Translations under genes and position numbers: made by a program
Assembly (NCBI GenBank): GCA_947347075.1
Contig: CANADC010000019.1
Coordinates: forward strand, 1-18,928
Reading direction: 5' to 3'
DNA length: 18,928 nt
Source: an uncultured Clostridia bacterium
GTDB taxonomy: Bacteria; Bacillota; Clostridia; Lachnospirales; Lachnospiraceae
The notes under the pieces: generated by a model
Database searches by the model: none
What the model saw: only the letters and a program-made list of their open reading frames with translations
Told to the model about the DNA's origin: nothing
Shown: positions 1-15,612 of the stretch, in pieces
How the letters are laid out: the number at the start of each line of letters is the position of its first letter
Numbering within the stretch: position 1 is the stretch's first letter

Positions 1-5
1 AGCAT

Positions 6-27
6 ATAGTCCTTGGAGAGGGACTAT
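6..27. promoter_or_regulatory. Perfect inverted repeat ATAGTCC-N8-GGACTAT directly upstream of the recombinase gene; candidate operator or recombinase binding site
   Basis: The palindrome is read directly in the sequence (6-12 pairs with 21-27). It lies where a -35 element would sit relative to TATAAT at 42-47. Serine recombinase genes commonly carry their res/att or autoregulatory site immediately 5' of the gene. Confidence 0.3.
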
Positions 28-41
28 AAACACTACTACTT

Positions 42-55
42 TATAATACGAGGAG
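42..55 (+). promoter_or_regulatory. Putative -10 (TATAAT 42-47) and RBS (GAGGAG 50-55) of the recombinase gene
   Basis: Consensus -10 hexamer and a Shine-Dalgarno 11 nt before the ATG at 67. No clean -35 is present, because the palindrome occupies that position. Confidence 0.3.
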
Positions 56-66
56 TGTAAAGAATA

Positions 67-1248
67 ATGAGTATATTTAGTAGAAATACAAAGGAAAGAC
101 AAGAATCTTTCAGTATGAGAAAGTTCTTTTTTGAGTGCAGATTTGATGATATCTTGAATACAAATAGGCTTTTAAGAGTTGCCAGATATGCCAGAGAATC
201 TACAAATCATCCAGATCAGTTGCAGGCGTTACATAATCAAGCGGAACGTTTAGATTCTTTGATCAAAGAGCATATTTATTTTACAATTGAAGAAAGGCAT
301 CGATATACAGAAAGGGGTATCTCAGGAAGAAGTATAGAAGATCGAGCAGCATTTCAGCTTATGTTGGAAGCAGCCAGACGAAGGGAGTTTGATTTAATTA
401 TTGTTCAAGATATTTGCAGATTTGCTAGGAATTTACGTGAATTATTAAATACAATTGAAGAGTTAAAAGAATATGATATTGGAGTTTTAATACTGGATGG
501 AAAGTATTGGACATTTAATATGGACGAAACAGATATTATTCGTTTGTCAGTTGATGGAGGATTGGCTCAGAGCGAGTCAATGAGGACGGCGAAAAGGGTT
601 AATAATGGTGTTCTTTCTTATAGAAAGAAAGGGCAATTAGTGGTATCAGGGTTATTTGGTTATATTTATGTAAAAGCTGTGGATAGGAAGAATAATACTT
701 TTCGGATTGATCCAGTTAATGGATTGACTGTTAAGACAATTTTTGATTTATATACCGATCCTGATTTAACGAAGCGTATGGGAACTCAAAAAATTGCAAA
801 TTATTTGATTGAACATAAGATGCTGACAGCAAGAGGAGATTTGGGTTGGAGTGCATCTAAGGTAAACCGAGTTCTTAGAAATGAAAAATATATGGGGTAT
901 CTGTTATATGGAAAGTTTAAAGTAGAAGATACCATGACAAAAAAGAAGATTGCAACCAAAATTAAACCAATCAGGGAGGATGTTTATGACAAAGAAGGAA
1001 ATTTGGTAGAACAGTGTAACTTAGTGAAAGGAAATTGGGAGTCAATTGTATCAGAGGAACAGTGGTGGCTTGCTTATCAGATCCGAAATGAAAAAGCAGT
1101 AGATTATATTTATTCAGTAAAAGGTTGTATGGTGAATGGTTTAAGAGAGTCTGTTGATATTATTGCGAATAAAAGTTTCTGTCAATGTGGATATTCGTTA
1201 AGCCCTCAGTATGTTCATACTGCAATATTGGAGGGCTATTACTGTTAA
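67..1248 (+). CDS. Large serine recombinase (resolvase/invertase catalytic domain plus recombinase domain), apparently 3'-truncated within the zinc-ribbon region. It has an unusual ~37-aa N-terminal extension.
   Basis: The catalytic-serine motif VARYARESTNHPDQ matches YxRVSTxxQ. DICRFARN matches the D-R-x-S-R-N region. The GISGRS...DIGVLILDG...VNNGVLSYRKKG block is typical of large serine recombinases. The product is 393 aa against a usual 450-550. It ends CQCGYSLSPQYVHTAILEGYYC, just as a CxxC zinc ribbon begins. The stop codon TAA is provided by the 36-bp repeat at 1243-1278. Confidence 0.85.
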   Translation: MSIFSRNTKERQESFSMRKFFFECRFDDILNTNRLLRVARYARESTNHPDQLQALHNQAERLDSLIKEHIYFTIEERHRYTERGISGRSIEDRAAFQLMLEAARRREFDLIIVQDICRFARNLRELLNTIEELKEYDIGVLILDGKYWTFNMDETDIIRLSVDGGLAQSESMRTAKRVNNGVLSYRKKGQLVVSGLFGYIYVKAVDRKNNTFRIDPVNGLTVKTIFDLYTDPDLTKRMGTQKIANYLIEHKMLTARGDLGWSASKVNRVLRNEKYMGYLLYGKFKVEDTMTKKKIATKIKPIREDVYDKEGNLVEQCNLVKGNWESIVSEEQWWLAYQIRNEKAVDYIYSVKGCMVNGLRESVDIIANKSFCQCGYSLSPQYVHTAILEGYYC

Positions 1249-1278
1249 GATTGCTGTAAAGTAAGAGAGAAAAAGAGG
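1243..1278. repeat. 36-bp direct repeat copy R1 (TGTTAAGATTGCTGTAAAGTAAGAGAGAAAAAGAGG) overlapping the last two codons and stop of the recombinase ORF
   Basis: 34 of 36 positions are identical to 2171-2206. Both copies begin TGT TAA and terminate the ORF they abut. Confidence 0.85.
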
Positions 1279-1305
1279 CTTGAAGAAATGATCAAGCCTT
1301 TTTTA
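1276..1305 (+). terminator. Rho-independent terminator after the recombinase gene
   Basis: Stem AGGCTTGA (1276-1283) pairs with TCAAGCCT (1292-1299) and is followed by a T6 run. Confidence 0.6.
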
Positions 1306-1373
1306 GTTTAGACGATCAGAATAAATTGCATTTTGGGTTATTTTTTGCTATAATTATATTAAAATCGTAGAGT

Positions 1374-1590
1374 TATTTAGTTTCTAAAAGGATATATAAA
1401 AAGTATTTGTTTTCATATAAGATTTTGTTGTTTTCTGTTGTAGACGCTACGATTATAAAGATAGTAATGTGTATATAAAATATGAAGGCTTATGTTTCAT
1501 GAGATAAATGGATATAGGAAAGTGAAACGTTACTTGTCTTATACTGGGAGATATTTATTACAATTTCGGTATATGGAAATGCGGAGGAAC
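1374..1590 (+). repeat. Leader repeat copy L1 (~217 bp; promoter plus upstream noncoding region of cassette 1), ~90% identical to 2223-2431
   Basis: Aligning the two regions by eye gives near-identity from TATTTAGTTT through AATTTCGGTATATGGAAAT. Each copy contains a -10-like TTATTACAAT or TTATTATAAT with an upstream TTGTCT or TTGCCT. Copy 1 has an extra ~90 bp (1591-1680) between the repeat and the RBS. Confidence 0.85.
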
Positions 1591-1685
1591 ATATTGTAAA
1601 TATTTTAATCTAAAGAGAAATAAGTTTTGAGATGATAAATTTAAGAATCATTGAAAAAAATTTGATAAGAAAGGGGGTTTATATA

Positions 1686-1925
1686 ATGGAAGAGCGATTG
1701 GATTGGAAACAAATAGTAGAAAAGTACCCGAACCAGTGGGTTGGTTTAACAGAAGTTGAGTATGAAGAAGATAATGATGCAACAATTAAAACTGCTATTG
1801 TGAAATATACAAATAAATCGAAAGATGAATTAACTTGGATGCAGTTTGAAACTTCTGGTGCATTGATAGGCATTTATACAACACCTGATAATGTATTTCA
1901 GTTAGGAGTACTGGGGGGTTTTTAA
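1686..1925 (+). CDS. Cassette gene A1: small (79 aa) protein of unknown function, translationally coupled to B1
   Basis: RBS AAGGGGG sits 8 nt before ATG 1686. The stop overlaps the B1 start (TAATG). It is ~50% identical to the 2451-2690 product, with shared EKYP-QWVGL, TIK/ESAIV-YT and YTTPD motifs. The supplied ORF starts at 1632, but the RBS supports 1686. Confidence 0.6.
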   Translation: MEERLDWKQIVEKYPNQWVGLTEVEYEEDNDATIKTAIVKYTNKSKDELTWMQFETSGALIGIYTTPDNVFQLGVLGGF

Positions 1926-2176
1926 TGAAACAGTTTACATTACATTTAGTTAAAGAAAAGTCAAGACCTATTGTAGAGCTAAAAAATTGGAATAATATTT
2001 ATGCATTGTTGGATACAGGGGCAATCTATCCTATTTGGACAGCAGATGAAAGGATTCTGATTCGATTTGGTGCAACATTGAAAGAGAAGGGTGTTTCGTT
2101 TGGAGGGTTTGGTGGTAAAACAAGTGGAAATAAAAAATCAACGATAGATTTATTCCTGAAGGGTTGTTCTTGTTAA
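1925..2176 (+). CDS. Cassette gene B1: retropepsin-like aspartic protease, 3'-truncated copy (83 aa)
   Basis: ALLDTGAIYPIW contains the hydrophobic-hydrophobic-D-T-G-A active-site signature of clan AA retropepsins. VSFGGFGGK resembles the Gly-rich flap (HIV PR has IGGIGGF). The homologous copy B2 continues ~70 aa further. B1 is cut short where repeat R2 supplies TGT TAA. Confidence 0.55.
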   Translation: MKQFTLHLVKEKSRPIVELKNWNNIYALLDTGAIYPIWTADERILIRFGATLKEKGVSFGGFGGKTSGNKKSTIDLFLKGCSC

Positions 2177-2206
2177 GATTGCTGTAAAATAAGAGAGAAA
2201 AAAAGG
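2171..2206. repeat. 36-bp direct repeat copy R2, overlapping the stop of B1
   Basis: TGTTAAGATTGCTGTAAAATAAGAGAGAAAAAAAGG matches 1243-1278 at 34 of 36 positions. Confidence 0.85.
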
Positions 2207-2222
2207 TTTGAAATTGCAAAGG

Positions 2223-2431
2223 TATTTAGTTTCCAATATATAAAAAGTATTTGTTTTCATATAAGATTTTGCTGTTTTCTGTTGTAGATGCTACGATTAT
2301 AAAGATAGTAATGTGTCTATAAAATATAAAGGCTTATGTTTCATTAGATGAATGGATATAGGAAAGTGAAATGTTACTTGCCTTATATTAGGAGATATTT
2401 ATTATAATTTCGGTATATGGAAATATAGAGG
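2223..2431 (+). repeat. Leader repeat copy L2 (promoter and leader of cassette 2)
   Basis: Near-identical to 1374-1590. It contains TTGCCT-N18/19-TATAAT and runs directly into RBS AAGGGAGGG. Confidence 0.85.
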
Positions 2432-2450
2432 AATAAAGGGAGGGTTTATA

Positions 2451-2690
2451 GTGTTAGAAGAAAGATTAACGTGGGAACAGATACAAGAAAAATATCCAGA
2501 TCAATGGGTAGGATTATTAGATGTAAAATATGAAGAAAATGATGGTATAACCATAGAATCAGCTATTGTAGAATATACGGGATTGTCGATGGATGCTTTA
2601 ACAAAGATGATGTTGCATGGGAAATGTGTAGCAAGATATACTACACCCGATCATGCATTTTCATTAGGAATGATAGAGGTGTTATCATGA
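2451..2690 (+). CDS. Cassette gene A2: paralogue of A1 (79 aa, GTG start)
   Basis: RBS AAGGGAGGG sits 8 nt upstream of GTG 2451. The product MLEERLTWEQIQEKYPDQWVGL aligns with A1 along its full length. The stop overlaps the B2 start (ATGA). Confidence 0.6.
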   Translation: MLEERLTWEQIQEKYPDQWVGLLDVKYEENDGITIESAIVEYTGLSMDALTKMMLHGKCVARYTTPDHAFSLGMIEVLS

Positions 2691-3146
2691 AACAGATAAC
2701 ATTAAATTTAGATAAAAAACAGCAAAGACCAATGGTATTATTACAATCGGGATTAACTGCTTTACTTGATACAGGTGCTTTTATGCCAGTATGGACAGGC
2801 GGAAAGGAATTGTTAGAAGAAGAATTTGGTGGAGAGTCACAAAATCGTAAGGTTTCATTTTCAGGGTTTGGTGGGAAATTATGGGGGGGATTTATATTCT
2901 GTAACATTGTCAGTTGGTGATTTGATATTTAATCATATGTCAATCATTGTAAGTAATAATTTGGGAATAACACCGTACCAGTTTATTATGAGTGCTACTA
3001 TGTTTGATCATTTAATTTATGAAGTTGATATGAAATGGCATAAACTTAATATAAAAATTCCAGATGATGAGAGTTTTGTTAGAAATTTAAGGTTAGTAGA
3101 TAAGAATGGAAAAATGTATATTTTATGTCATTCTGAACAAAAGTAG
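2687..3146 (+). pseudogene. Cassette gene B2: full-length retropepsin-like aspartic protease (~153 aa), interrupted by a +1 frameshift at the G7 run 2883-2889
   Basis: Frame 2687 reads MKQITL...ALLDTGAFMPVW...VSFSGFGGKLWGG, then stops. Frame 2826 continues DLYSVTLSVGDLIFNHMSIIVSNNLGITPYQF...ILCHSEQK to 3146. Removing one G from the G7 tract joins the two frames into one ORF. That ORF aligns with B1 as far as B1 extends (STIDLFL against SVGDLIF). Confidence 0.6.
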
Positions 3147-3169
3147 AATAGAAATGGAAAAACAAGTAT

Positions 3170-3214
3170 AGGTTATGAGCAAGTAGCAAAGCGGATTGCG
3201 AATATCCGATTTGA
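3170..3214. repeat. 45-bp direct repeat copy D1 (AGGTTATGAGCAAGTAGCAAAGCGGATTGCGAATATCCGATTTGA)
   Basis: 43 of 45 positions are identical to 5298-5342. It contains the small internal palindrome CGGAT-TGCGAAT-ATCCG. Confidence 0.8.
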
Positions 3215-3242
3215 TTTTGATAAATTGTGAATGTCTTCTTTT

Positions 3243-3272
3243 TTGATATACTAAAAAAAGAGGTAGTATGAT
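3243..3272 (+). promoter_or_regulatory. Sigma-A-type promoter for the transglutaminase-like gene
   Basis: TTGATA (3243-3248), an 18-nt spacer, then TATGAT (3267-3272). Confidence 0.45.
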
Positions 3273-3372
3273 ACAAAATGGATAGAAGATATTATTTAAA
3301 GATTGGCAAAAGGTGAACCATTACCAGAGAAAAATAAAGATTATTCTCGCAATGGCTTCTATGGAGGAAAAA

Positions 3373-3990
3373 ATGAATGTAGTTTTATATTCAAATAAAG
3401 TTGACGAATATTTAAAACAGGATAATGTGGTTGATTATGATAATGAAGATATTATAGAATTGGCTGATAAATTATTTAGGAAAGCAAGTAATGAACTTGA
3501 TTTCATTAAAATAACTTATGAATTTGTCAGAGATAATATTTTACATTCAGCAGATATAAATGAAGATGTCATTACATGTGCTGCTTCGGAAGTGCTAAAA
3601 GCCGGTCATGGAATTTGCTTTGCTAAATCTCACTTATTGGCAGCATTATTACGATGTAAATCTGTTCCGGCAGGTTTTTGTTATCAAAAATTAATTTTAG
3701 ATGATGAAAAAGCTCCTGTCTTAATTTATCATGGATTAAACGGCGTATATATAAAAGACTGTAAAAAATGGATAAGGCTTGATGCGAGAGGAAATAAAAT
3801 TGGTGTAAATGCACAGTTTTCAATAGAAAAGGAACAGCTTGCATTTCCCATTCGTTCTCAAATGGGAGAATCGGATAGTTTTATAGTATATCCTGATCCT
3901 GATATAAAGATATTAGAAAAATTAAGAGAAAGTAAGACGAGAACAGTACTTTGGGATAATCTGCCTACTGAACTTGGATATAACAAATAG
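3373..3990 (+). CDS. Transglutaminase-like superfamily cysteine protease or transglutaminase-like enzyme
   Basis: GHGICFAKSHLLAALLRCKSVPAGFCYQ matches the TGase-core G-x-C-x-x-F-A...LLR-x-x-x-I-P-A-R motif and includes the catalytic Cys. The downstream His (IYHG..VYI) and Asp (WIRLDARG) complete the Cys-His-Asp triad. RBS GGAGGA precedes ATG 3373. The supplied ORF begins at 3313, but 3373 has the RBS. Confidence 0.7.
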   Translation: MNVVLYSNKVDEYLKQDNVVDYDNEDIIELADKLFRKASNELDFIKITYEFVRDNILHSADINEDVITCAASEVLKAGHGICFAKSHLLAALLRCKSVPAGFCYQKLILDDEKAPVLIYHGLNGVYIKDCKKWIRLDARGNKIGVNAQFSIEKEQLAFPIRSQMGESDSFIVYPDPDIKILEKLRESKTRTVLWDNLPTELGYNK

Positions 3991-4416
3991 TATCTAATGC
4001 CAGTTTATTTAAACCAATATTGTCACAATCATAATGGAATAATAACATCGTATGAGAGCATATAGAAAACGAGTCTATATGTTCTATTTTTATGTAAAGG
4101 AATAGATTTATAAGCAAAGACAGTAGGCAGGACAAAGAAAAAGAATAGGATAGGTTACAATAAAAATGATAATTTTTTTAAGGTTATATAGTAAAAAAGG
4201 ATATATTAATAAAAAATATAATATTTTTTTATTAGAAATAGTTTTATATGAAAAATTGATTGGAAAGATTAGGGAAAGGGGATGATTCAATTATTTTTTA
4301 AGGGATTTAAAATAAAATTGTAATAAATATTTCCTTCTTTAGAAAATTGTGATACAATAACTCTATGGGAGGATTTTGAGATTGTTTTAGGATATGCGTA
4401 AGAAAGGAGAAGAATT

Positions 4417-5130
4417 ATGGAACAAATGAAAATTACACCAAAAGACAGCAGACTTCGTGCTCTGAGTATAGTGGTTTCTGAATATGAAATTGATTTTGAT
4501 CCAGAATTGCTAGAACCGGTAACGGCTCTGCTTCGTAAGATTTTAGGGGCAGAAAAGGAAGATGAAAAGTATGGGAAATATGCTTATCTGATTGAAACGG
4601 TAAGGGAATTTGACGGGGAGACTTTTTATCATTTAATCGGTGTGGGGTTACTTGCTGGGGTTACAGCGAAGATTATGGATTTGAGTGATACTGAGTTTGA
4701 GAAAATTGTAATAGCTGGTGTACTCCATGATATTGGAAAAGTGATGGTAGGAACTGATATTTTAAGAAAACCATGTGGCGTTTCCGAAAAAGAGATGATT
4801 CAGATTCGTAAGCATCCAATCTATGCATACCGACTTCTTTCTGAGGTTGAGAAGGACTCCGATATTTTATTTGGTGTGTTGATGCATCATGAACGGTTCT
4901 GCGGCGGGGGATATCCGCTGAATTATAATGGGGAGCAGATTCCGTTGTGTGCTCGTATATTAGCAGTTTGTGATACGTTTGATGCATTGACTTCCAGCCG
5001 TCCTTATCATACAAAGAGCAGTGTGCAGGATTCACTTTATTATATTGTGCGTTCGACTCGATATGATCCTTATGTCAGTTCGGCGTTTAAGACAGCTTTC
5101 CAAGGAGGAAATTGTGCTTGGTGGAAGTAA
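4417..5130 (+). CDS. HD-GYP domain phosphodiesterase (c-di-GMP or cyclic-dinucleotide hydrolase family)
   Basis: GVLHDIGK supplies the HD motif. MHHERFCGGGYP matches HHExxDGSGYP, the GYP motif. A conserved ILAVCDTFDALTSSRPY block is present. RBS AAAGGAGA precedes ATG 4417. Confidence 0.85.
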   Translation: MEQMKITPKDSRLRALSIVVSEYEIDFDPELLEPVTALLRKILGAEKEDEKYGKYAYLIETVREFDGETFYHLIGVGLLAGVTAKIMDLSDTEFEKIVIAGVLHDIGKVMVGTDILRKPCGVSEKEMIQIRKHPIYAYRLLSEVEKDSDILFGVLMHHERFCGGGYPLNYNGEQIPLCARILAVCDTFDALTSSRPYHTKSSVQDSLYYIVRSTRYDPYVSSAFKTAFQGGNCAWWK

Positions 5131-5169
5131 AAGAGGGAAAGAGGAAAAATAAAAAGAGATAAACAAAAG

Positions 5170-5205
5170 GTTCTGAAAGTAATTTATTTTCAGAACTTTT
5201 TATTT
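5170..5205 (+). terminator. Rho-independent terminator after the HD-GYP gene
   Basis: GTTCTGAAA (5170-5178) pairs with TTTCAGAAC (5188-5196), followed by TTTTTATTTT. Confidence 0.65.
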
Positions 5206-5227
5206 TGTTTGAATTCGATCTTGGTTT

Positions 5228-5302
5228 AACCTCATCAAGGAAGTCCCCCGCTTCTAAGCCGCCAAGGCGAAAGCGGTGGGTTGGGACTTCCTTGATGAGG
5301 TT
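5228..5302. other. 75-nt structured element: perfect 20-bp inverted repeat (AACCTCATCAAGGAAGTCCC / GGGACTTCCTTGATGAGGTT) enclosing a 35-nt loop with a nested CCGCTT...AAGCGG hairpin
   Basis: The two arms (5228-5247 and 5283-5302) are perfectly complementary. No T-run follows, so it is not a simple terminator. It abuts repeat D2. Confidence 0.6.
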
Positions 5303-5342
5303 ATGAGCAAGCAGCGAAGCGGATTGCGAATATCCGATTTGA
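5298..5342. repeat. 45-bp direct repeat copy D2
   Basis: AGGTTATGAGCAAGCAGCGAAGCGGATTGCGAATATCCGATTTGA differs from D1 (3170-3214) at 2 positions. Confidence 0.8.
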
Positions 5343-5605
5343 CATAGAGTTTAGTTTAAGGTTAGGTTTATGAAAGGGATTTTATAAGCGGGAAAAATGG
5401 GGGATATTCTTATGGGGATTTTAAAGAGAACCTGTATTTTTCTGTAGAAAAAGGGAGAAGAAAATCACAATTCGAACAAATGGTCGAAAAAATTATTAAA
5501 ATATCGTAAATTCACTGGAAAAAAAGAAAAGGTTGTGGTAGAGTAAGTTAGAAATGGCTTTCGGATAATAGAGAGGAATCAGAAAAAAGAAAGGAAGATG
5601 GAAAC

Positions 5606-7525
5606 GTGGGAGCGAAGGATACTTACAATGCACAGAATATAACCGTGTTGGAAGGGTTAGAAGCGGTAAGAAAACGACCGGGAATGTATATTGGGAGTGT
5701 ATCGGTAAAGGGATTAAATCATCTGATTTATGAGATTGTAGATAATGCAGTGGATGAACATTTGAACGGATATTGTGATTCGATCTGGGTGACATTGGAG
5801 AAAGACGGTTCTGCTACAATTAAGGACAATGGACGTGGGGTTCCTGTAGATATGCATCCGAAAGGGCTTCCAGCGGCACGAATTGTCTATACGACACTTC
5901 ATGCAGGGGGAAAATTTGGAGACGGGGCTTATAAGACCAGCGGAGGACTGCATGGAGTGGGGTCTTCTGTGGTAAATGCTCTGTCGGCTTATCTGGATGT
6001 ACAGGTTTTTAAGGATGGCGGAATTCACCATGACCGCTATGAAAGAGGAGTTCCAGTTGTAGAATTAGTGGACGGGCTGCTGCCGATTATCGGAAAGACC
6101 AGACAGACGGGAACAGTGGTTAATTTTTTGCCGGATGAGGAGATTTTTGATAAGATTTATTTTAAAGCGGATGCAGTGAAAAGCAGGCTGCATGAAACCG
6201 CTTATTTGAATCCAGAATTGACGATTTATTTTGAAAACAGACGTCCTGGAGAGGAAGAAAAGGCGGTGTTTCATGAAAAAGAGGGAATTCGGGGGTTTGT
6301 GCGTGCCTTAAATGATGGGAAAGAGACGATACATGATGTAATTGCTTTTCATGGGGAGTCGGAACAGATTGTGGTGGACGTAGCATTTCAGTATATCAAT
6401 GATTTTCAGGAAAATATTTTGGGGTTCTGCAATAATATTTATACACAAGAAGGGGGAACCCATCTAACCGGGTTTAAGACCAGCTTTACAACGGTAATTA
6501 ATAATTATGCACGGGAACTGGGAATTTTAAAGGAGAGAGATGCAAATTTTACCGGGGCAGATGTTCGGAACGGTATGACAGCAGTGGTCTCTATCAAACA
6601 TCCCGATCCACGGTTTGAAGGGCAGACAAAGACCAAGTTGGATAATCCAGATGCAACAAAGGCAGCTTCGCAGATTACCAGTGAAGAACTGCAGCTATTT
6701 TTTGATAAAAATCTAGAAATTTTAAAAAATGTAATTGGATGTGCCGAGAAATCGGCAAAGATTCGAAAAGCGGAAGAGAAGGCAAAGACCAATATGCTGG
6801 TAAAACCGAAGTTTTCATTTGATTCCAATGGGAAATTGGCAAATTGTGAAAGCCGGGATGCTTCCAAGTGTGAGATTTTTATTGTGGAAGGGGATTCAGC
6901 AGGCGGTTCGGCAAAGATGGCAAGAAACCGGCTTTATCAGGCAATTCTGCCGATTCGGGGAAAGATATTGAATGTAGAAAAGGCAACGATGGATAAAGTA
7001 CTTGCCAATGCTGAGATTCAAACTATGATATTGGCATTTGGCTGTGGGTTTTCTGAGGGATATGGAAATGATTTTGATATTTCGAAACTGCGTTATCATA
7101 AGATTATTATTATGGCAGATGCCGATGTGGATGGGGCACATATCAGTACCCTGCTTTTAACCCTGTTTTATCGGTTTATGCCGGAGTTAATCTATGAGGG
7201 ACATGTCTATCTTGCTATGCCGCCGCTTTATAAAGCAGTACCTCAAAGGGGACCGGAAGAGTATCTCTATGATGATAAGGCATTGGAGAAGTATCGAAAA
7301 AGTCATAAAAATTTTATTTTGCAGCGATATAAAGGGTTAGGAGAGATGGATGCGGCACAGCTTTGGGAGACTACTTTAAATCCAGAGACTCGAATGTTAC
7401 GGCGGGTAGAGATTGAGGACGGAAAGATGGCATCGGATGTAACTTCTATTTTAATGGGAAGTGATGTGCCGCTTCGAAGAGAATTTATCTACAGACATGC
7501 CAAAGAAGCGGAAATCGATGCATAA
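5606..7525 (+). CDS. parE: Type IIA DNA topoisomerase ATPase (B) subunit of the GyrB/ParE family; probably topoisomerase IV ParE, given the partner A subunit
   Basis: It aligns collinearly with Bacillus subtilis GyrB and ParE: VLEGLEAVRKRPGMYIGS, LHAGGKFG, GLHGVG, EGDSAGGSAK, PLRGKILNVEKA, MTDADVDGAHI and QRYKGLGEM. GTG start with RBS AAAGGAAG. 639 aa. Confidence 0.6.
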   Translation: MGAKDTYNAQNITVLEGLEAVRKRPGMYIGSVSVKGLNHLIYEIVDNAVDEHLNGYCDSIWVTLEKDGSATIKDNGRGVPVDMHPKGLPAARIVYTTLHAGGKFGDGAYKTSGGLHGVGSSVVNALSAYLDVQVFKDGGIHHDRYERGVPVVELVDGLLPIIGKTRQTGTVVNFLPDEEIFDKIYFKADAVKSRLHETAYLNPELTIYFENRRPGEEEKAVFHEKEGIRGFVRALNDGKETIHDVIAFHGESEQIVVDVAFQYINDFQENILGFCNNIYTQEGGTHLTGFKTSFTTVINNYARELGILKERDANFTGADVRNGMTAVVSIKHPDPRFEGQTKTKLDNPDATKAASQITSEELQLFFDKNLEILKNVIGCAEKSAKIRKAEEKAKTNMLVKPKFSFDSNGKLANCESRDASKCEIFIVEGDSAGGSAKMARNRLYQAILPIRGKILNVEKATMDKVLANAEIQTMILAFGCGFSEGYGNDFDISKLRYHKIIIMADADVDGAHISTLLLTLFYRFMPELIYEGHVYLAMPPLYKAVPQRGPEEYLYDDKALEKYRKSHKNFILQRYKGLGEMDAAQLWETTLNPETRMLRRVEIEDGKMASDVTSILMGSDVPLRREFIYRHAKEAEIDA

Positions 7526-7590
7526 AAAAGGACGAAATCCGAGGATAAAAGGATTGATAGGATAGAAACAAAATGGAGAGGGAATGTGTG

Positions 7591-9834
7591 ATGGCAGAAC
7601 AAATTATTAGCACAGAGTTTGCAGATGTAATGCAGAAAAGTTTTGTAGATTATGCAATGAGTGTAATTACAGCTCGTGCCGTGCCGGATGTGCGGGACGG
7701 GTTAAAGCCGGTGCAGCGCCGGGTTTTATATGCAATGCATGAGTTGGGATTAAACTTTGATAAGCCGCATCGAAAATCGGCAAGAATTGTTGGTGATACC
7801 ATGGGAAAATATCATCCCCATGGGGACAGCTCGATTTATGAGGCACTGGTTGTAATGGAGCAGGACTTTAAAAAGGGAATGGCTTTGGTGGACGGGCATG
7901 GAAATTTTGGATCGATTGAGGGAGATTCTGCAGCCGCTATGCGTTATACCGAGGCACGATTAAAAAAATTTACGCAGGAGGTCTATCTTAAGGATTTAGA
8001 TAAAAATGTAATTGATTTTCTGCCCAATTTCGATGAAACGGAAAAGGAACCAGAAGTGCTTCCAGTTCGGGTCCCCAATATCTTGGTAAACGGAGCGGAC
8101 GGAATTGCAGTTGGAATGGTGACTTCGATTCCGCCTCACAATTTAGGAGAAGTGATTTCTGCAGTAGAGGCATTTATAGAAAATGACGAAATTAGTACAG
8201 AAGAATTGATGGAGTATATAAAAGGACCGGATTTTCCGACCGGAGGGATTGTAATTAATCAAAAGGAGTTAGCAGAAATCTATGAGACTGGCAGCGGAAA
8301 GATTAAAGTTCGCGGGAAATTGGAGTTTGAGCCGGCAAAAAAGAAAAATGAACGGGATAAATTAGTAATTACAGAGATTCCTTATACTTTAATTGGAAGT
8401 AATTTAGGAAAACTTCTTGCCGATATTGCGGGATTGGTAGAAGCGAAAAAAACAACAGATATTGTGGATATTTTAAATCAGAGTTCCAAAGAGGGAATTC
8501 GGATTGTATTGGAATTAAAAAAGAATACCGATATAGAAAAACTTTCGAACCTGCTCTATAAAAAGACAAAATTAGAGGATACGTTTGGAGTAAATATGCT
8601 GACAATTGTAAATGGAAAGCCGGAAAAATTGGGGCTGCGTGAAATTCTTCGTCATCATTTGGATTTTCAGATTGAATTGGCTTCCAGAAAATATCAGTAT
8701 TTATTAAAAAAAGAGCTGGAAAAAAAGGAGATAAAAGAAGGGCTGATACGTGCCTATGATATTTTAGATTTGCTGATTGAGATTATACGGGGAAGCCGTT
8801 CGGTAAAAGAGGTTAAGAAATGCTTGGTGTATGGAGATACCAGTAAAATTCAGTTTAAAAAACAGGCTTCTGAAAAGGCGGCTGCAAAGTTAAATTTTAC
8901 GGAAGCACAGGCTTCTGCTATTTTAGAACTCCGGCTGCAAAAACTGGTGGGATTGGAGATTCAGGCACTGGAGAAAGAGTATAAAGAGATTGTAAAAAAT
9001 ATTGCACAGTATACGGATATTTTGGAGAATCATACTTCTATGCTGAGAGTAATTCGAAAAGATTTGGAAGTGATTCGAAAAGAGTTTTCATTGGAACGAA
9101 AGACAGCCATTTTAAATGCACAGGCAGCGGTTTACGAGGAAGCACCGATTGCCGAACAGGAGATTGTCTTTACGATGGATCGGTTTGGTTATGCGAAAAC
9201 CATGGATCTTTCGACTTATGAGAGAAATGCAGAGACGGTGGAACATGAGAATAAGTATGTCTTTCGCTGTATGAATACCGATAAGATTTGTATTTTTACC
9301 GATACGGGCAGTATGCATCAGATTAAGATGTTAGATATTCCTTTTGGAAAATTAAGAGATAAGGGACAGCCGATTGATAATTTGGGAAATTATTCTAGTG
9401 CAGGAGAGGCGATTGTTGGAATTTTTACATTTTCTTCTATTCGAGAGAGGAAACTTTTTTTTGCTACGAAAAGCGGAATGGTAAAATTGGTAAACGCTTC
9501 TGAATTTGATGTAAATCGAAAGACTATTTTGGCAACGAAATTAGAAGAGCAGGACAGTGTAGTTTGTGTTTGCCCGGTTTTAGAGGAGGATAGAGAAGTG
9601 CTGCTTTATTCTCATGGAGGGTATTTTTTACGGTTTGCTTTGGAAGAGGTGCCGGAAAAGAGAAAAAGTGCATTGGGAGTACATGGGATGAAGATGGCAG
9701 AAAAGGATTATTTGGAGTGGGTGTCGCTGTTAAAAGGCGGACAGGAGTTTTTTGATTTTCGAAGTAAGGGGATAGCAGTGGCAAGAGTAAAAGAGGCAAA
9801 GCGGGATGAAAAAGGAACGAAGCTGCGGATATAG
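7591..9834 (+). CDS. parC: Type IIA DNA topoisomerase A subunit of the GyrA/ParC family; no GyrA box, so probably topoisomerase IV ParC
   Basis: The N-terminal breakage-reunion domain aligns with GyrA and ParC: AMSVITARAVPDVRDGLKPVQRRVLYAM, GKYHPHGD, DGHGNFGS, AAAMRYTEARL. The QRRGGKG GyrA box is absent where it would sit, and the sequence there reads TYERNAETVEHENKYV. The product is ~747 aa with a short C-terminal domain. The start is placed at ATG 7591 (MAEQIIS), with RBS GGAGAGGG. The supplied ORF starts at 7573. Confidence 0.6.
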   Translation: MAEQIISTEFADVMQKSFVDYAMSVITARAVPDVRDGLKPVQRRVLYAMHELGLNFDKPHRKSARIVGDTMGKYHPHGDSSIYEALVVMEQDFKKGMALVDGHGNFGSIEGDSAAAMRYTEARLKKFTQEVYLKDLDKNVIDFLPNFDETEKEPEVLPVRVPNILVNGADGIAVGMVTSIPPHNLGEVISAVEAFIENDEISTEELMEYIKGPDFPTGGIVINQKELAEIYETGSGKIKVRGKLEFEPAKKKNERDKLVITEIPYTLIGSNLGKLLADIAGLVEAKKTTDIVDILNQSSKEGIRIVLELKKNTDIEKLSNLLYKKTKLEDTFGVNMLTIVNGKPEKLGLREILRHHLDFQIELASRKYQYLLKKELEKKEIKEGLIRAYDILDLLIEIIRGSRSVKEVKKCLVYGDTSKIQFKKQASEKAAAKLNFTEAQASAILELRLQKLVGLEIQALEKEYKEIVKNIAQYTDILENHTSMLRVIRKDLEVIRKEFSLERKTAILNAQAAVYEEAPIAEQEIVFTMDRFGYAKTMDLSTYERNAETVEHENKYVFRCMNTDKICIFTDTGSMHQIKMLDIPFGKLRDKGQPIDNLGNYSSAGEAIVGIFTFSSIRERKLFFATKSGMVKLVNASEFDVNRKTILATKLEEQDSVVCVCPVLEEDREVLLYSHGGYFLRFALEEVPEKRKSALGVHGMKMAEKDYLEWVSLLKGGQEFFDFRSKGIAVARVKEAKRDEKGTKLRI

Positions 9835-9910
9835 CGGAATGGGTTATGATAGTATTGTACTGTAGTGAAAAAGGAATAAAGAGGCAAATAGAGAGAAGAG
9901 GGTTAAGAAG

Positions 9911-10843
9911 ATGAAAAGGATATGGTTAGGAATTTTCTGCGGGCTTTTGATTTTGGGGCTGGCTGGATGCGGAAAGGAGTTAGAGAAAGCAAATAAAGGA
10001 GGGGTGGATTCGACAGAGAGAATAGAAGAGGGGTATCCTGTTACGGTACAGGGAGCAGGGGGAGAAGAGCTTGTTTTGGAGGCGGAACCTTTGCGGGTGG
10101 TTTCGGTAGGACCTAATATAACGGAATTGCTTTATTCGCTTGGAGTGCAGGAGAAGTTGGTGGGGCGGACGGATTATTGTGATTATCCGAAAGAGGTTCT
10201 TTCCGTGGATACAATTGGTACGCTTTATACACCAGATGTAGAGAAGATCATTAGTTTGGAGCCGGATTTGGTGATTGCTTCAACTCATTTTTTGGATGAG
10301 ACAAAGGAGAAGTTGGAAGCGGTCGGGATTTCGGTGCTGGTTTTGCATGAGGAGAATGAGTTAGAAGGGGTCTATCGTTTGATTGATACGCTGGGGGCGG
10401 TTTTTAATCAAAAGGGACGTGCTTTGGAAATTGTGGAGGATATGCAGAAGCGGATTGCTGCTGTGGAAGAAAAGGTAGCAGAAGTGGAGCCGGTTTCGGT
10501 TTATTATGTGGTTGGATATGGAGATGGCGGGGATTATACGGCGGGGGGAGATACGTTTATTCATGAAATTTTGACTGCAGCGGGTGGACGGAATGTGGCG
10601 GAAGAAGTGAGTGGGTGGAGTTATTCTTTGGAAAAGCTGCTGGAGGCGGATCCAGATGTGATTCTTGTTTCGGAGGCGGATTATGAGGGATTTGTTGAGA
10701 CGGAGCCTTATGCAGGGCTTCGGGCGGTGAAGGAAGGGAGGGTTTATACGATAGATGAAAATTTGTTGAATCGGCAGTGTGATCGAAATGCGGATGCGGT
10801 TGAGCAGATTGCTCGGATGCTTTATCCGGGGGTGTTTTCATGA
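9911..10843 (+). CDS. ABC-transporter substrate-binding lipoprotein of the BtuF/FecB class (cobalamin or iron-siderophore type)
   Basis: The lipoprotein signal peptide has an LAGC lipobox. LRVVSVGPNITELLYSLGV, VGRTDYCDYP and LEPDLVIAS match the Peripla_BP_2 fold. No permease or ATPase gene is adjacent in this window. Confidence 0.75.
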   Translation: MKRIWLGIFCGLLILGLAGCGKELEKANKGGVDSTERIEEGYPVTVQGAGGEELVLEAEPLRVVSVGPNITELLYSLGVQEKLVGRTDYCDYPKEVLSVDTIGTLYTPDVEKIISLEPDLVIASTHFLDETKEKLEAVGISVLVLHEENELEGVYRLIDTLGAVFNQKGRALEIVEDMQKRIAAVEEKVAEVEPVSVYYVVGYGDGGDYTAGGDTFIHEILTAAGGRNVAEEVSGWSYSLEKLLEADPDVILVSEADYEGFVETEPYAGLRAVKEGRVYTIDENLLNRQCDRNADAVEQIARMLYPGVFS

Positions 10844-10880
10844 TTTGCTTGGAGTAAAAAATAGAAGGGGACGCTGGAGT

Positions 10881-11127
10881 GGGGGAGTGATTCCGTTCTG
10901 TTGTTCCGCTCTCTGGAAAGGTAGAAGCTCTAAGACTTCTGAATTTCGGTGTATCCAGCCGGACGGATCGGGGTGCAATTCGCCCGTACAGCGGGCTAAA
11001 CACACCCCTTTTTTTGCCATTCGGGAATGGCAAAAAATCCTAGTGGATCGACAGAAGTCTAAGGGCTTCTAACTTTCCTCCGAAGTCACAGCAGAACGGA
11101 ATCGCTCCCCCGCTCCGGCTGTTTTTT
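10881..11127. repeat. Long imperfect inverted-repeat element (~231 bp plus T7) between the binding-protein gene and the next promoter; MITE-like or a large structured RNA
   Basis: GGGGGAGTGATTCCGTTCTGTTGT (10881-10904) pairs with ACAGCAGAACGGAATCGCTCCCCC (11088-11111). GGAAAGGTAGAAGCTCTAAGACTTCTG (10915-10941) pairs with CAGAAGTCTAAGGGCTTCTAACTTTCC (11052-11078). Together these give about 50 bp of two-segment complementarity enclosing ~110 nt that contain two terminator hairpins. A T7 run follows at 11121-11127. Confidence 0.55.
10970..11038. terminator. Bidirectional terminator pair
   Basis: GGGGTG...CACCCC (10970-11008) followed by T7 (11009-11015) terminates + strand transcription. GCCATTC-GGG-GAATGGC (11016-11032) is flanked by a T-run upstream and an A-run downstream, so it can also terminate - strand transcription. 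Confidence 0.6.
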
Positions 11128-11170
11128 TCTGTCGGTAGGTTGGATTTGCGGAATGGTTTGCAGTTTAATC

Positions 11171-11199
11171 TTGACAATTCTTCCATAATCATCTAGAAT
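11171..11199 (+). promoter_or_regulatory. Sigma-A promoter of the PLP-enzyme gene
   Basis: TTGACA (11171-11176), a 17-nt spacer, then TAGAAT (11194-11199). Confidence 0.5.
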
Positions 11200-11280
11200 A
11201 TAAAGAAGTTTTTTAAGAAAATGAAGGTTTTTAGATTTGGACTTGCAAAAAAGGGAGTATTGTATAAGGAGAGGAATGGA

Positions 11281-12570
11281 ATGAAAAAGGCGTATCAGGA
11301 TAGAGCGAGAGAAGAGCTGTTGGAACTGCAGGCTGAGTTGGAGCAGCAGTATAAAGAGGTAAAGAAGATGGGATTTCAGCTGGATATGTCTAGGGGGAAG
11401 CCTGGAATATCACAGCTTAATAGTATTATGGGGATGATGGATGTTTTGGACAGTCAGTCGGATTATCAGACGGAGGAAGGGTTTGACAGCAGAAATTATG
11501 GTGCGATGGACGGAATTTTAGAGGCGAAAAGGCTGATGGCGGATATTATGGGGACAACGCCGGAAAAGGTCGTGGTTTATGGAAATTCTAGTTTAAGTAT
11601 TATGTATGATTCGATTTCCCGCTGTTATACGCATGGGGTGACAAAGGACAGTGTTCCTTGGTGTAAGTTAGAGCGGATAAAGTGGCTTTGTCCGGCTCCG
11701 GGGTATGACAGGCATTTTGCGATAACAGAGCGGTTTGGAATAGAAATGATTGTGATTCCTATGAGGGAAGACGGACCGGATATGGATCAGATTGAACGGC
11801 TGGTGGCGGAGGATGAAAGTATAAAGGGCATTTGGTGTGTTCCGAAATATTCGAATCCGCAGGGAATTAGTTATTCGGATTCTGTGGTAAGAAGAATAGC
11901 AGCTTTAAAGCCAAAGGCAGCGGATTTTAGAATTTATTGGGATAATGCTTATGCGGTGCATGATCTGGATCCGAAACATCCGGTTAAAATTTTGGATATT
12001 CTTTCGGCATGTGAAGAGGCGGGAAATCCAGATTTGGTCTATGAGTTTGCTTCTACTTCTAAGATTAGTTTTTCGGGTGCGGGGATTGCAGCGATGGCGG
12101 CTTCGGAGAAGAATTTAAAGGAAATTCGGGAACAGTTGGGGATTATGACGATTGGATATGATAAGATAAATCAGCTGCGGCATGTGCGGTATTTTAAGAA
12201 TTTAGAGGGAGTCTGCAGACAGATGGAGGTACATGCAGAACTGATTCGCCCGAAATTTAATGCGGTGCTTGAAATTTTGGAAGAGGAATTGGGCGGACTG
12301 GAGATTGGAACGTGGACAAAGCCGCTGGGCGGATATTTTATTAGTTTTGAGGCAATGGAGGGGTGTGCACAGAAAATTGTGGCAAAGTGCAGAGAGGCTG
12401 GCGTGATCATGACAAAAGCCGGGGCAACCTATCCTTATGGAAATGATCCAAGGGATACCAATATTCGGATTGCTCCTACGTTTCCAACGCTGGAGGAGAT
12501 AACGGAGACAGCAAAATTATTTGCTTTATGTGTGAAATTGGTAAGTGTTGAAAAATTGTTGGAAAAGTAA
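11281..12570 (+). CDS. Fold-type-I PLP-dependent aminotransferase-like enzyme (class I/II fold)
   Basis: WDNAYAVHD matches the D-x-A-Y pyridine-N-binding motif. FASTSKISFSGAG carries the S-x-S-K Schiff-base lysine. 429 aa. RBS AAGGAGAGG precedes ATG 11281. The supplied ORF begins earlier, at 11221. Confidence 0.65.
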   Translation: MKKAYQDRAREELLELQAELEQQYKEVKKMGFQLDMSRGKPGISQLNSIMGMMDVLDSQSDYQTEEGFDSRNYGAMDGILEAKRLMADIMGTTPEKVVVYGNSSLSIMYDSISRCYTHGVTKDSVPWCKLERIKWLCPAPGYDRHFAITERFGIEMIVIPMREDGPDMDQIERLVAEDESIKGIWCVPKYSNPQGISYSDSVVRRIAALKPKAADFRIYWDNAYAVHDLDPKHPVKILDILSACEEAGNPDLVYEFASTSKISFSGAGIAAMAASEKNLKEIREQLGIMTIGYDKINQLRHVRYFKNLEGVCRQMEVHAELIRPKFNAVLEILEEELGGLEIGTWTKPLGGYFISFEAMEGCAQKIVAKCREAGVIMTKAGATYPYGNDPRDTNIRIAPTFPTLEEITETAKLFALCVKLVSVEKLLEK

Positions 12571-12583
12571 AGAGTTTTTTTAG

Positions 12584-12613
12584 ACCGTTTGTTTGATAAA
12601 AGCAGACGGTTTT
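12584..12613 (+). terminator. Weak terminator hairpin after the PLP-enzyme gene, overlapping the proC promoter
   Basis: ACCGTTTG (12584-12591) pairs with CAGACGGT (12603-12610), including one G-U pair, followed by TTTT. Confidence 0.35.
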
Positions 12614-12621
12614 GTTATAAT
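12593..12621 (+). promoter_or_regulatory. Sigma-A promoter of proC
   Basis: TTGATA (12593-12598), a 17-nt spacer, then TATAAT (12616-12621). Confidence 0.5.
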
Positions 12622-12668
12622 GGTTATAATTGGTGTAAAGGATCAAAAAGAAAGGAATCGGTGGACGG

Positions 12669-13479
12669 GATGAAGAAAATTGCATTGATTGGTATGGGAA
12701 ATATGGCTTCTGCTATGCTGAAGGGGATAGAGACTATGTTTAGTAAGGAGGAGATTATTTTTTCTAGAAAGGATGCAAAGAAGAGGGAACAGTTTTCGAA
12801 AGAGAATCATATAGAGGGAGCGGAGGATAATGTTTCTTGTGCAAAGGCGGCAAAGTATCTTATTTTGGCAGTAAAGCCGCAGTTTTTTCCAACTGTGTTA
12901 GAGGAGATAAAACCTGTAGTAAGGGAGGAACAGGTGGTGATATCGGTGGCTGCAGGAGTGGATCGGGAGATGATAAAAAGCGGACTTGGCGGGAAAGGGC
13001 GTGTGGTGCGTGCCATGCCGAATACACCGGCACTTTTGGGAGAGGGGATGACGGGGATTTGTTATCAGGAAGAGGAGTTTTCTTCGGAGGAGATACAGAC
13101 GATAGAGGCAATTTTTTCTTCTTTTGGGCGGGTAAAGAAGGTGGAAGAACATCTGATGAATACCGTGATTTGTGTGAGCGGGAGTGCTCCTGCTTATGTT
13201 TATTTGTTTATTGAAGCGTTGGCGGACAGTGGTGTGAAATATGGGCTTTCACGGGAAATGGCATATGAGATGGCGGCACAGACGGTATTGGGAGCGGCAA
13301 AAATGGTGCTGGAAACAAAGGAACATCCGGGGGTGTTAAAGGATCGGGTGTGCTCTCCGGGAGGAACGACCATTGCCGGAGTTGCCGCCTGTGAGGAGTA
13401 TGGACTTCGCAATGCGGTGTTGAAAGCGACAGATGCTTGTTATCAAAAGGCGGAACAGTTAGGAGGCAAAAAAAAATGA
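12669..13479 (+). CDS. proC: Pyrroline-5-carboxylate reductase
   Basis: IALIGMGNMASAM is the N-terminal NAD(P)-binding Gly motif. LAVKPQ, VVRAMPNTPALLGEG and CSPGGTTIAGV are ProC signatures. The start is taken at MKKIAL (ATG 12669). The supplied ORF starts at 12589. Confidence 0.85.
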
Positions 13480-14003
13480 AGCAGAAACGACTGAATCGGG
13501 AATTAATTTATCAGGGGAAAATTATTGGGGTGTATCAGGATACGATTGAATTGCCGGACGGAAATATAGTAAAGTATGATTTTATTAAGCACAATGGTGC
13601 AGCGGCTGTAGTTCCGGTGACACGGGAGGGAAAGATTTTAATGGTGCGGCAGGATCGCAATGCCGTTAATCGGGAGACTTTGGAGATTCCGGCAGGAAAG
13701 CGGGACGGGGAAGAAGATCCGATGGTGTGTGTGCGGCGGGAATTGGAGGAGGAGACAGGATATCAGTGCCAGAGACTGGAGCATTTGATTACATTGGACA
13801 GTTGGGTGGCGTTTTGTGACGAGCGGATTGATGTCTATGTAGCAATGGATTTGGTTCCCTCTAGACAGCATTTGGACGAAGATGAATTTATTGATGTGGA
13901 GGAGTGGGAGATCGAACAATTGGAAGAGATGATCTTTTCTGGAAAAATACGAGATGCGAAAACAATTGCCGGACTTATGTCTTATAAAGCGAAATATTTG
14001 TAA
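13476..14003 (+). CDS. nudF: Nudix hydrolase (ADP-ribose pyrophosphatase-like)
   Basis: The Nudix box GKRDGEEDPMVCVRRELEEETGY fits Gx5Ex7REUxEExGU. RBS AGGAGG precedes ATG 13476, which overlaps the proC stop (ATGA). A Nudix hydrolase, then spoIIM, then xerD is the gene order seen in Bacillus. Confidence 0.75.
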   Translation: MKQKRLNRELIYQGKIIGVYQDTIELPDGNIVKYDFIKHNGAAAVVPVTREGKILMVRQDRNAVNRETLEIPAGKRDGEEDPMVCVRRELEEETGYQCQRLEHLITLDSWVAFCDERIDVYVAMDLVPSRQHLDEDEFIDVEEWEIEQLEEMIFSGKIRDAKTIAGLMSYKAKYL

Positions 14004-15604: not shown

Positions 15605-15612
15605 AGTTTTGC

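Follow-up and report, generated by a model that had tools for sequence, protein, structure and literature searches.

What is a long, perfect hairpin doing in the spacer between two transcription units of a Lachnospiraceae genome, and does it mark the edge of a mobile gene module? The question is raised by 18,928 nucleotides (nt) of DNA from an uncultured Clostridia bacterium (GenBank assembly GCA_947347075.1, contig CANADC010000019.1, positions 1 to 18,928 of the forward strand; hereafter the window, to which plain coordinates refer), where the first-pass annotation had described a 75-nt element with a perfect 20-bp stem and a hairpin nested in its loop. The element was placed between a terminator and D2, the second copy of a direct repeat, at the right edge of a module, and the roles put forward for it were a recombination hairpin of the integron-attC or IS200/IS605 kind, a repetitive extragenic palindrome (REP), an RNase III processing site or a small structured RNA. 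We conclude with good confidence that positions 5225-5343 are one copy of a dispersed, non-coding, highly structured Lachnospiraceae repeat family, the copy most likely being a passenger where it lies.

All of the features that had been described are present, where they had been placed and far beyond what chance would give. The stem is one base pair longer than reported: the arm at 5227-5247 (TAACCTCATCAAGGAAGTCCC) is 100% complementary to 5283-5303 across a 35-nt spacer, and the 20-mer arm has no other match in the window with three or fewer mismatches, the chance expectation being 0. Folded as RNA, positions 5228-5302 reach -49.1 kcal/mol, far below the -22.5 ± 3.0 kcal/mol of 200 dinucleotide shuffles, none of which folds as well (z = -8.9). 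The loop holds the second stem, CCGCTT (5248-5253)/AAGCGG (5271-5276), which in turn encloses an innermost stem, GCC (5258-5260)/GGC (5266-5268). A terminator-like hairpin (5165-5201) lies upstream, and on the other side the stem runs into a 45-nt direct repeat, 3170-3214 (D1) and 5298-5342 (D2), whose copies are 96% identical and share the final 5-6 bases of the 21-bp stem.

Hairpin and direct repeat belong to a larger unit. Sorting of 141 copies of the repeat core yielded a parent element of 161-165 nt at full length, which reads, in order, TTTAACC, the 5' arm of stem P1, the hairpins H1, H2 and H3, the 3' arm of P1, TGAGCAAG, the tag G(T/C)AG, CG, the core hairpin and GAC. P1 is a 9-bp closing stem that makes a four-way junction with H1-H3; H1 consists of two nested stems with a conserved TGGGTK bulge, and H3 is capped by a GNA-type loop. 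The core of the parent, G(T/C)AG-CG-AAGCGGAT/TGCGAAT/ATCCGCTT-GAC-3' (top strand GTAGCGAAGCGGATTGCGAATATCCGCTTGAC), is almost invariant and ends the element at TTGAC. In a profile hidden Markov model (HMM) built from 35 family members (alignment A1), positions 5227-5342 of the window align to profile positions 1-160 (E = 1.5e-27), and the window copy has both the 5' TTTAACC of the family and a 3' end of the type ATATCCG(N)TTGAC. It equals the 165-nt master apart from one core base and a 46-nt deletion of H2 and H3, without which the complete junction of P1, H1, H2 and H3 is lacking. Elsewhere, H2 (TTTCCGTGGGAG/CTCCCACGGAAA) and H3 (AGCTGC GATA GCAGCT) do accompany the window-type H1, at the loci L011, L021, L037, L040 and L059, and full copies with window-type H1, H2 and H3 are found in 31 metagenome contigs as well.

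This anatomy explains the appearance of the locus. Because the loss of H2 and H3 puts the 9-bp P1 directly on the 12-bp H1, the two form one uninterrupted 21-bp helix. The hairpin at 5227-5303 is the 5' two-thirds of a 119-nt copy and D2 is the 3' core of the same copy, D1 being the core of another. The D1 copy is matched by the profile in its core only (3169-3214, profile positions 116-159, E = 1e-13), and the stem and the direct repeat appear to overlap because D1 keeps the last six bases of the 3' arm of P1 (P1'). No third copy was detected in the window with the profile HMM.

The family is abundant and its copies lie at unrelated sites. When one genome per species was scanned for the core 20-mer AAGCGGATTGCGAATATCCG, at least 120 loci were found, nearly all in Lachnospiraceae; among the matches listed, the carriers are Blautia, 'Ruminococcus' spp., Mediterraneibacter, Lacrimispora, Fusicatenibacter, Eubacterium sp. 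MSJ-13 and mouse-gut MGBC metagenome-assembled genomes (MAGs), single genomes hold many loci, and many loci fall at contig ends. Cultured carriers include Blautia wexlerae, B. schinkii and Fusicatenibacter saccharivorans, and Clostridium sp. Marseille-P2415 is a carrier too. Over 905 kb of collected loci the profile HMM made 192 matches; copy density is roughly one per 5-20 kb, and 131 of the 141 cores lie outside open reading frames (ORFs) of at least 150 aa. A metagenome scan with a 53-nt window-type H1, two positions being left free, returned 31 contigs. Metagenome and genome loci together give 42 window-type copies, with 27 distinct left flanks and 29 distinct right flanks, and one and the same 165-nt sequence is found in 27 of the 42. 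High copy number at unrelated intergenic sites is the very pattern that the first-pass annotation had named as the mark of a generic REP-type repeat with no tie to boundaries. The REP-like candidate thus stands in the sense of a dispersed structured intergenic repeat, and falls in any narrower one.

Many of the copies are deletion derivatives or truncations, and remnants with only a 5' or only a 3' part occur too. Commonest among the short forms is one of 50 nt in which the 5' end is fused to the core, CAAGCAAG of H1 being joined to GAGCAAG of the core. The short form of the window, with the same deletion junction, is found in at least five contexts with different flanks (the window, L013, L025, L095 and L120) and has therefore been propagated as a short form. 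Some copies share only one flank: when L151 is compared with L155, L169 and L011, and L156 with L158, L161, L021 and L150, there are copies that have the left flank in common and differ in the right, and one right flank occurs with two left flanks. Such swapping of flanks indicates either recombination between copies or chimeric assembly over the identical 165-nt repeat.

The ends of the element are sharp, TTT|AACC on the left and TTGAC| on the right. T is conserved at positions -1 to -3 before AACC, beyond which the sequence is random; directly after TTGAC the composition is random. The TTT that precedes AACC in 83-90% of copies may belong to the target or to the element. We found no target-site duplications in the flanks of 30 distinct sites and no terminal inverted repeats, TTTAACC and TTGAC not being inverted repeats of each other, and on both grounds rejected a classical MITE (miniature inverted-repeat transposable element) derived from a DDE transposase. 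At none of the loci does the element enclose a gene between its 5' and 3' ends, the apparent long cases being decayed copies or copies with single-nucleotide polymorphisms (SNPs); an autonomous version with an internal gene was rejected, none being present among the loci examined. Targeting of terminators was likewise rejected: the 45 nt immediately upstream fold strongly in just 17% of family copies. A BLAST search of 5140-5420 against a phage collection returned unverified, unannotated human-faecal contigs that match mostly over 5299-5339, the direct repeat and not the hairpin, and that carry a longer modular element ahead of this conserved stretch; a search of a plasmid collection gave no relevant match. 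Judging from the identity of its copies, the family would be a non-autonomous mobile element that is, or recently was, copied as a unit.

In alignment A1 (35 distinct elements), 96.9% of the cells in the columns of P1, H1, the inner stems, H2, H3 and the core hairpin are paired, as compared to 34-44% when partners are slid by 1-3 columns; compensatory double changes affect 26 of the 58 pairs, and none of 500 shuffles reaches any of these measures. P1 comes in the variants GAAT/ATTC, AAAT/ATTT, TCAT/ATGA, GAGT/ACTC and TTAT/ATAA, and in one lineage it is wholly replaced (TGAACGCAG/CTGCGTTCA). Covariation of this kind is strong support for the fold; the helices are kept by compensatory change, and structure is under selection. 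The predicted fold of the 165-nt master is the four-way junction, with -85.6 kcal/mol (z = -8.7), and with DNA parameters the 119-nt copy of the window reaches z = -8.0. The core behaves differently from the stems: over 74 distinct variants, all collected through an exact 20-mer match and its invariance therefore read within such copies, it is nearly invariant, loop included, with G in 71, T in 62 or C in 11, A in 72 and G in 71 at the four tag positions and a stem of 8 bp. Such constancy of sequence points to sequence-specific recognition as its likely cause. The core is compatible with two folds, the 8-bp hairpin or an extended hairpin with tandem G.A pairs resembling that of the Clostridiales-1 RNA motif.

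Between co-directional genes, 45 copies lie in the orientation of the genes and 10 in the opposite one; the G-rich strand is the one concerned in 100 of 128 copies, and G.T cells (52, in 21 columns) outnumber A.C cells (18, in 16 columns). We infer that it is one strand whose fold counts, in the form of RNA or of single-stranded DNA (ssDNA). As judged by local GC skew, gene direction equals replication direction in all but three loci. These results bear on a second reading, in which the element serves above all as a functional structured RNA, be it a small RNA like Clostridiales-1 or a cis-acting mRNA element, possibly alongside a mobile origin: the stems would stabilise or process co-transcribed mRNAs, with the 21-bp helix as a possible RNase III substrate, and the purine-rich core would bind a protein. 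A perfect 21-bp helix is of sufficient length for RNase III. Covariation is strong in every helix, the excess of G.U over A.C and the co-orientation with flanking genes are as expected of a transcript, the core can be folded as UAU-GA-GCAA...UUGC-GA-AUA with the tandem G.A submotif also present in Clostridiales-1, and its sequence is constant even in the loop. G.T pairs and GNA-type loops, however, suit ssDNA hairpins equally well; the element has no promoter or terminator of its own, core-only copies follow unrelated upstream sequences, and the window copy, being 3' of a terminator, would be transcribed by read-through only. Whatever the function, 27 identical, sharp-ended copies need a copying mechanism. 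We regard a primary role as RNA as possible but rather doubtful. The positions of all these parts, and of the genes around them, are collected in Table 1.

Table 1. Parts of the two repeat copies and neighbouring features of the window.
Feature	Position	Strand	Basis or remark
Whole repeat copy, 119-nt short form, TTTAACC...CCGATTTGAC	5225-5343	+	HMM match and identity to the 165-nt master
P1 5' arm (TAACCTCAT)	5227-5235	+	Pairs with 5295-5303; compensatory double changes in 5 of 9 P1 pairs across subfamilies
H1 5' arm (CAAGGAAGTCCC)	5236-5247	+	Pairs with 5283-5294; 4 of 12 pairs covary; AAGTCCC/GGGACTT nearly invariant
H1 apical part: CCGCTT/AAGCGG, GCC/GGC, conserved 3' bulge TGGGTT	5248-5282	+	Fold; 6 of 11 inner-stem pairs covary
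H1 3' arm (GGGACTTCCTTG)	5283-5294	+	Deletion junction 5294/5295, where full copies carry TTTCCGTGGGAGTGCAGACTCCCACGGAAAAGCTGCGATAGCAGCT (H2 and H3, 46 nt)
P1 3' arm (ATGAGGTTA)	5295-5303	+	Pairing alignment
Invariant 3' core, TGAGCAA-GCAG-CG-(AAGCGGAT TGCGAAT ATCCGATT)-TGAC (= D2)	5304-5343	+	Tag 5311-5314, hairpin 5317-5339
Second copy, 5'-truncated (= D1): last 6 nt of P1' and core	3170-3215	+	GTAG 3183-3186, hairpin from 3189
Terminator-like hairpin and T-run of the upstream HD-GYP gene	5165-5211 (hairpin scan 5165-5201)	+	Outside the repeat, context only
Large serine recombinase	67-1248		
Tandem paralogous small-ORF modules, ~800 bp each (repeats D1-D3 and D5 of the self-comparison)	1229-3170		
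Transglutaminase-like protein	3313-3990		
HD-GYP protein	4417-5130		
gyrB/parE-like and gyrA/parC-like pair	5606-9834		
Periplasmic binding protein, aspartate aminotransferase, ProC, NUDIX protein	Between the gyrA/parC-like and XerD-like genes, as listed		
XerD-like recombinase	14762-15604		323 bits to XerD

Within the source species the copy at 5225-5343 is fixed: six longer contigs from other samples carry the same 475-nt spacer with 2-4 substitutions. In one strain, the change 5237 A>G turns an A-T pair of the 21-bp stem into a G.T wobble. Position 5304 is T in the window, as in the family consensus (GGTTATGAGC), and G in five of six other strains (GGTTAGGAGC). Among Logan contigs of the species, eight of the nine short contigs of the gyrB-like gene start at 5316, inside the core, and one longer contig ends at 5279, which is the effect that a multicopy repeat has on assemblies. 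The transglutaminase-like and HD-GYP genes and both repeat copies are present in all strains examined, and strains differ only upstream of about 2650, which leaves roughly 520 nt to the closest copy. Since the two-gene module between the copies does not vary from strain to strain, the direct repeats do not mark the limits of a cassette in the window, and a boundary role at the right edge of the module is not borne out. We picture the copy as lying after the terminator and upstream of a likely promoter of the parE/gyrB-like gene, where it would be a passenger without cassette-boundary function.

The variable region itself is the interval between prfA and the transglutaminase-like gene (window 1-2650, compared with L129-L132 and L135). 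The serine recombinase gene is present, split or absent depending on the strain, and the number of ~800-bp small-ORF modules differs too.

A further reading takes the element for an attachment site. Here the element would lie at the edges of mobile cassettes and be used like attC, as a folded single strand, by a site-specific recombinase; the two window copies do bracket an accessory-looking pair of genes, and two copies in L013 bracket a DNA methylase and an unknown gene. A third case comes from another strain of the source species, whose 180-kb contig L202 holds a 1979-nt segment (7302-9282, against window 14028-14043) that is missing in the window and in at least 15 further contigs. The NUDIX gene and the next ORF enclose this segment, which contains two DUF488 genes, one DuOB gene and an ORF of 101 aa; at its right edge is a diverged short-form copy (9166-9281, minus strand), the 5' end of which is at most 3 nt from the point where homology to the window resumes. 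Its left junction and the empty site, however, hold no copy, nor does the edge of the other variable region (window 1-2650), and the module of the window does not vary in any strain examined. Copy pairs elsewhere bracket ordinary genes (GNAT acetyltransferases, a sigma factor, a SpoU methylase, GerA), housekeeping genes are flanked as well (gyrB/parE-like, GerA, SpoU methylase), and with roughly one copy per 5-20 kb any gene pair would be expected to lie between copies, so the bracketing seen may be due to chance.

Nor does the machinery fit. The window contains no integron integrase: its sole tyrosine recombinase fits XerD (323 bits) better than the integron integrase model (132 bits, cut-off 265), and the gene is 9.4 kb away, behind housekeeping genes. 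In attC sites it is structure that is conserved, rather than sequence. The copies studied here hardly differ in sequence, and the stem pairs perfectly and lacks extrahelical bases. The P1 ends, TTTAAC...GTTA, loosely resemble the consensus of the attC R''/R' boxes, a likeness that does not amount to a test. Integron-attC-like function, as the annotation had proposed, is therefore not sustained by the recombinase, the identity of the copies or the stem, and we consider an attachment site of any such kind highly improbable.

Two further readings concern the locus itself. In the first, the hairpin would be the left or right end of an IS200/IS605-family insertion sequence, in keeping with a hairpin, the lack of terminal inverted repeats and target-site duplications, and the strand bias. 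The window, however, has no Y1_Tnp or TnpB-like ORF, none of the loci has a gene between the element ends, and the element is complete within 119-165 nt. The proposal is hardly credible here, and the annotation's IS200/IS605 candidate finds no Y1 or TnpB gene in the window to go with it. In the second, the element would be a local regulatory signal, either a second terminator of the HD-GYP gene or an attenuator or promoter of the parE/gyrB-like operon, as its position between two transcription units and its 3' end, TTGACA (5338-5343), might suggest. Against this, the stem is followed by ATGAGCAAGC and not by a T-run, no -10 box lies 16-18 nt past the terminal TTGAC, and the same sequence stands beside unrelated genes at dozens of sites; we judge a local signal very improbable. 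An intrinsic terminator was rejected for what follows the stem, the scan reporting the upstream hairpin at 5165-5201 only, and promoter donation by the terminal TTGAC was rejected with a -10 box in 1 of 112 family copies and none in this one.

How would a passenger of this kind be spread? The mechanism that we prefer is hairpin-dependent, single-strand mobilisation in trans, as for REP/RAYT systems (RAYT, REP-associated tyrosine transposase) or elements derived from IS200/IS605, with the GYAG-tagged core hairpin as the putative recognition site; we hold this single-strand HUH mechanism tentatively, as a preference at less than even odds. A phmmer search of all ORFs in the collected loci, with an IS608 TnpA sequence as the query, found one true Y1 transposase, P0001 (L157 2864-3265; Pfam Y1_Tnp, 114.7 bits), with a 165-nt copy 1.8 kb away on the same contig. 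The exact P0001 sequence occurs on 225 contigs, and all 21 contigs examined show one context (UvrD, VanZ/RDD, Y1_Tnp, PNPOx, BNR); by analogy, a single fixed context would be RAYT-like behaviour.

Several observations weigh against mobilisation of this kind, and some of them against a mere passenger. No mobilising enzyme was found among the loci examined, and no clean pair of filled and empty sites for a single element; the 5'-truncated copies show no peak of breakpoints at the GYAG tag. P0001 has H-T-Y in place of HUH, and H-T/V-Y stands there in its nearest relatives, which are at least 92% identical; this suggests that P0001 may be inactive or domesticated. The repeat on its flanks is another one, GGAAGACGTCGGCAC...ACGTCTGGAACGGAGCGAAAGCG, with an inner hairpin of the form AAU-GA-GCA...GC-GA-AUU, and the two canonical-HUH homologues of P0001 sit in fixed contexts with no copy of the 165-nt repeat nearby. 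The orientation bias fits RNA-level and replication-strand causes alike, there being 3 informative loci. Finally, the segment edge at the copy in L202 is not predicted if copies are purely passengers. The flanks of three Y1_Tnp genes contain no core copies. As a partner for the repeat, P0001 was kept as a lead only, in view of its degenerate motif, fixed context and other flanking repeat.

The surroundings of these Y1 genes hold further repeats. A third repeat family (GGAAGACGTCGGCACTTA...ACGTCTGGAACGGAGCGAAAGCG; L176 2460-2960 and 5490-5640, also L157 3330-3530) occurs twice upstream of a Y1 gene, inverted, and once downstream, and two of its three copies have an inner AAU-GA-GCA...GC-GA-AUU hairpin as in the 165-nt core and Clostridiales-1. 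Upstream of P0074, a Y1_Tnp gene with a single context (L184-L193, about 300-2400), an RVT_1 gene, an IS110-family transposase gene or two tyrosine recombinase genes are found depending on the sample, and this spacer appears to be an insertion hot spot. One may speculate that the 165-nt family, Clostridiales-1 and the third repeat form one superfamily of single-strand-mobilised Lachnospiraceae elements, whose shared tandem-G.A hairpin (AU-GA-GC...GC-GA-AU, tagged with GYAG in the 165-nt family) would be recognised by a domesticated HUH/Y1 enzyme. We think this unlikely; if true, the elements would be a Firmicute counterpart of REP/RAYT with a four-way junction as cargo, and copies could serve as joints for the gain of gene segments, as in the L202 strain.

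The window holds one more structured element in a spacer, between the periplasmic-binding-protein and aminotransferase genes. This is a G+C-rich giant hairpin of about 255 nt (10868-11123) with arms of about 75 nt, the RNA minimum free energy of which is -151 kcal/mol (z = -14). Over 189 nt it is 87% identical to L037 6586-6772, a stretch that precedes a copy of the 165-nt repeat by about 30 nt, and it would seem to be a further dispersed element in these genomes, of a MITE-like kind.

For the window, these results remove a false lead: hairpin and direct repeats are copies of a common repeat and not cassette boundaries. The wider interest lies in a family that is abundant in Lachnospiraceae of the human and mouse gut (Blautia, Fusicatenibacter, Mediterraneibacter, Lacrimispora), breaks short-read assemblies and, with 26 compensatory pairs, covaries about as clearly as such families ever do; its spread and its action as RNA or ssDNA, once worked out, would explain a visible fraction of intergenic DNA and improve the assembly and annotation of MAGs. 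No Rfam family reaches its gathering threshold in the window, and our literature search found neither the core sequence nor Lachnospiraceae repeats of this kind. Absent from Rfam 15 and from the literature searched, this is a new family of a familiar kind, and as an interspersed repeat it should surprise a specialist moderately.

Among known systems, the Clostridiales-1 RNA motif (Rfam RF01699; Weinberg et al. 2010, PMC2864571), whose function is unknown, is alike in its hosts (gut Clostridiales/Lachnospiraceae), its similar size (~165-170 nt), its covarying multi-stem junction and its many copies per genome; more than 10 sequences of its seed alignment come from NZ_ABOU02. The two share the submotif AU-GA-GCA...UGC-GA-AU, which reads AUAU-GA-GCAU...AUGC-GA-AUAU in the Clostridiales-1 seed and UAU-GA-GCAA...UUGC-GA-AUA in the 165-nt core. 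The hairpin that carries it, however, is an arm inside the junction in Clostridiales-1 and a 3' appendix outside P1 in the 165-nt family, and the other stems are unrelated in sequence. Alone among Rfam families in having a meaningful match below threshold on full copies, the Clostridiales-1 model scores 24.7 bits on the full relative L001 (E = 0.0019 in a 351-nt search) and 20.8 bits on L003, against a gathering threshold of 48; it has no match in the window at E <= 10 and none at E <= 0.5 in eight further full copies. Membership was rejected on these scores and on the place of the GA-motif hairpin, 3' of P1' and not inside the closing stem.

The core is built like the GTAG-tagged REPs, in which the tag is followed by an unpaired dinucleotide and then by a stem of 6-9 bp, with a conserved 3-nt motif on its far side (Di Nocera et al. 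2013, PMC3733652). The 165-nt family matches them in tag, stem-loop, extragenic location and high copy number, as well as in gene orientation and the frequency of G.T pairs: its core is G(T/C)AG, CG, an 8-bp stem and a 3-nt tail. REPs, however, are 20-40 nt long, usually form inverted dimers and are tied to the RAYT genes that they flank (PMC3733652), whereas here a single core is attached to a 120-nt four-way junction in fixed relative orientation and the unit measures 165 nt (119 nt in the short form). A survey of GTAG REPs mentions Firmicutes 0 times (PMC3733652). Among the genome fragments examined, no RAYT gene flanked by cores of the 165-nt family was found; the one single-copy Y1_Tnp gene seen in these fragments of carrier species has another flanking repeat and a degenerate HUH motif.

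Integron attC sites are comparable as palindromes, imperfect or perfect, which lie 3' of genes and can fold as a single strand; the 165-nt family differs from them in having no IntI, identical copies, no extrahelical bases and dispersal over the genome in place of an array. The closest analogue in behaviour is the BOX element of Streptococcus pneumoniae, which Croucher et al. (2011, PMC3049150) describe as a modular, structured intergenic repeat with a varying number of internal modules, judged parasitic and able to affect co-transcribed genes. Both families are modular and structured repeats of Gram-positive bacteria, and for BOX, too, the mobilising enzyme is given as unknown there. Sequence and host are unrelated, and the modules change in different ways, through repetition of boxB in BOX and through deletion of hairpin modules and 5' truncation in the 165-nt family.

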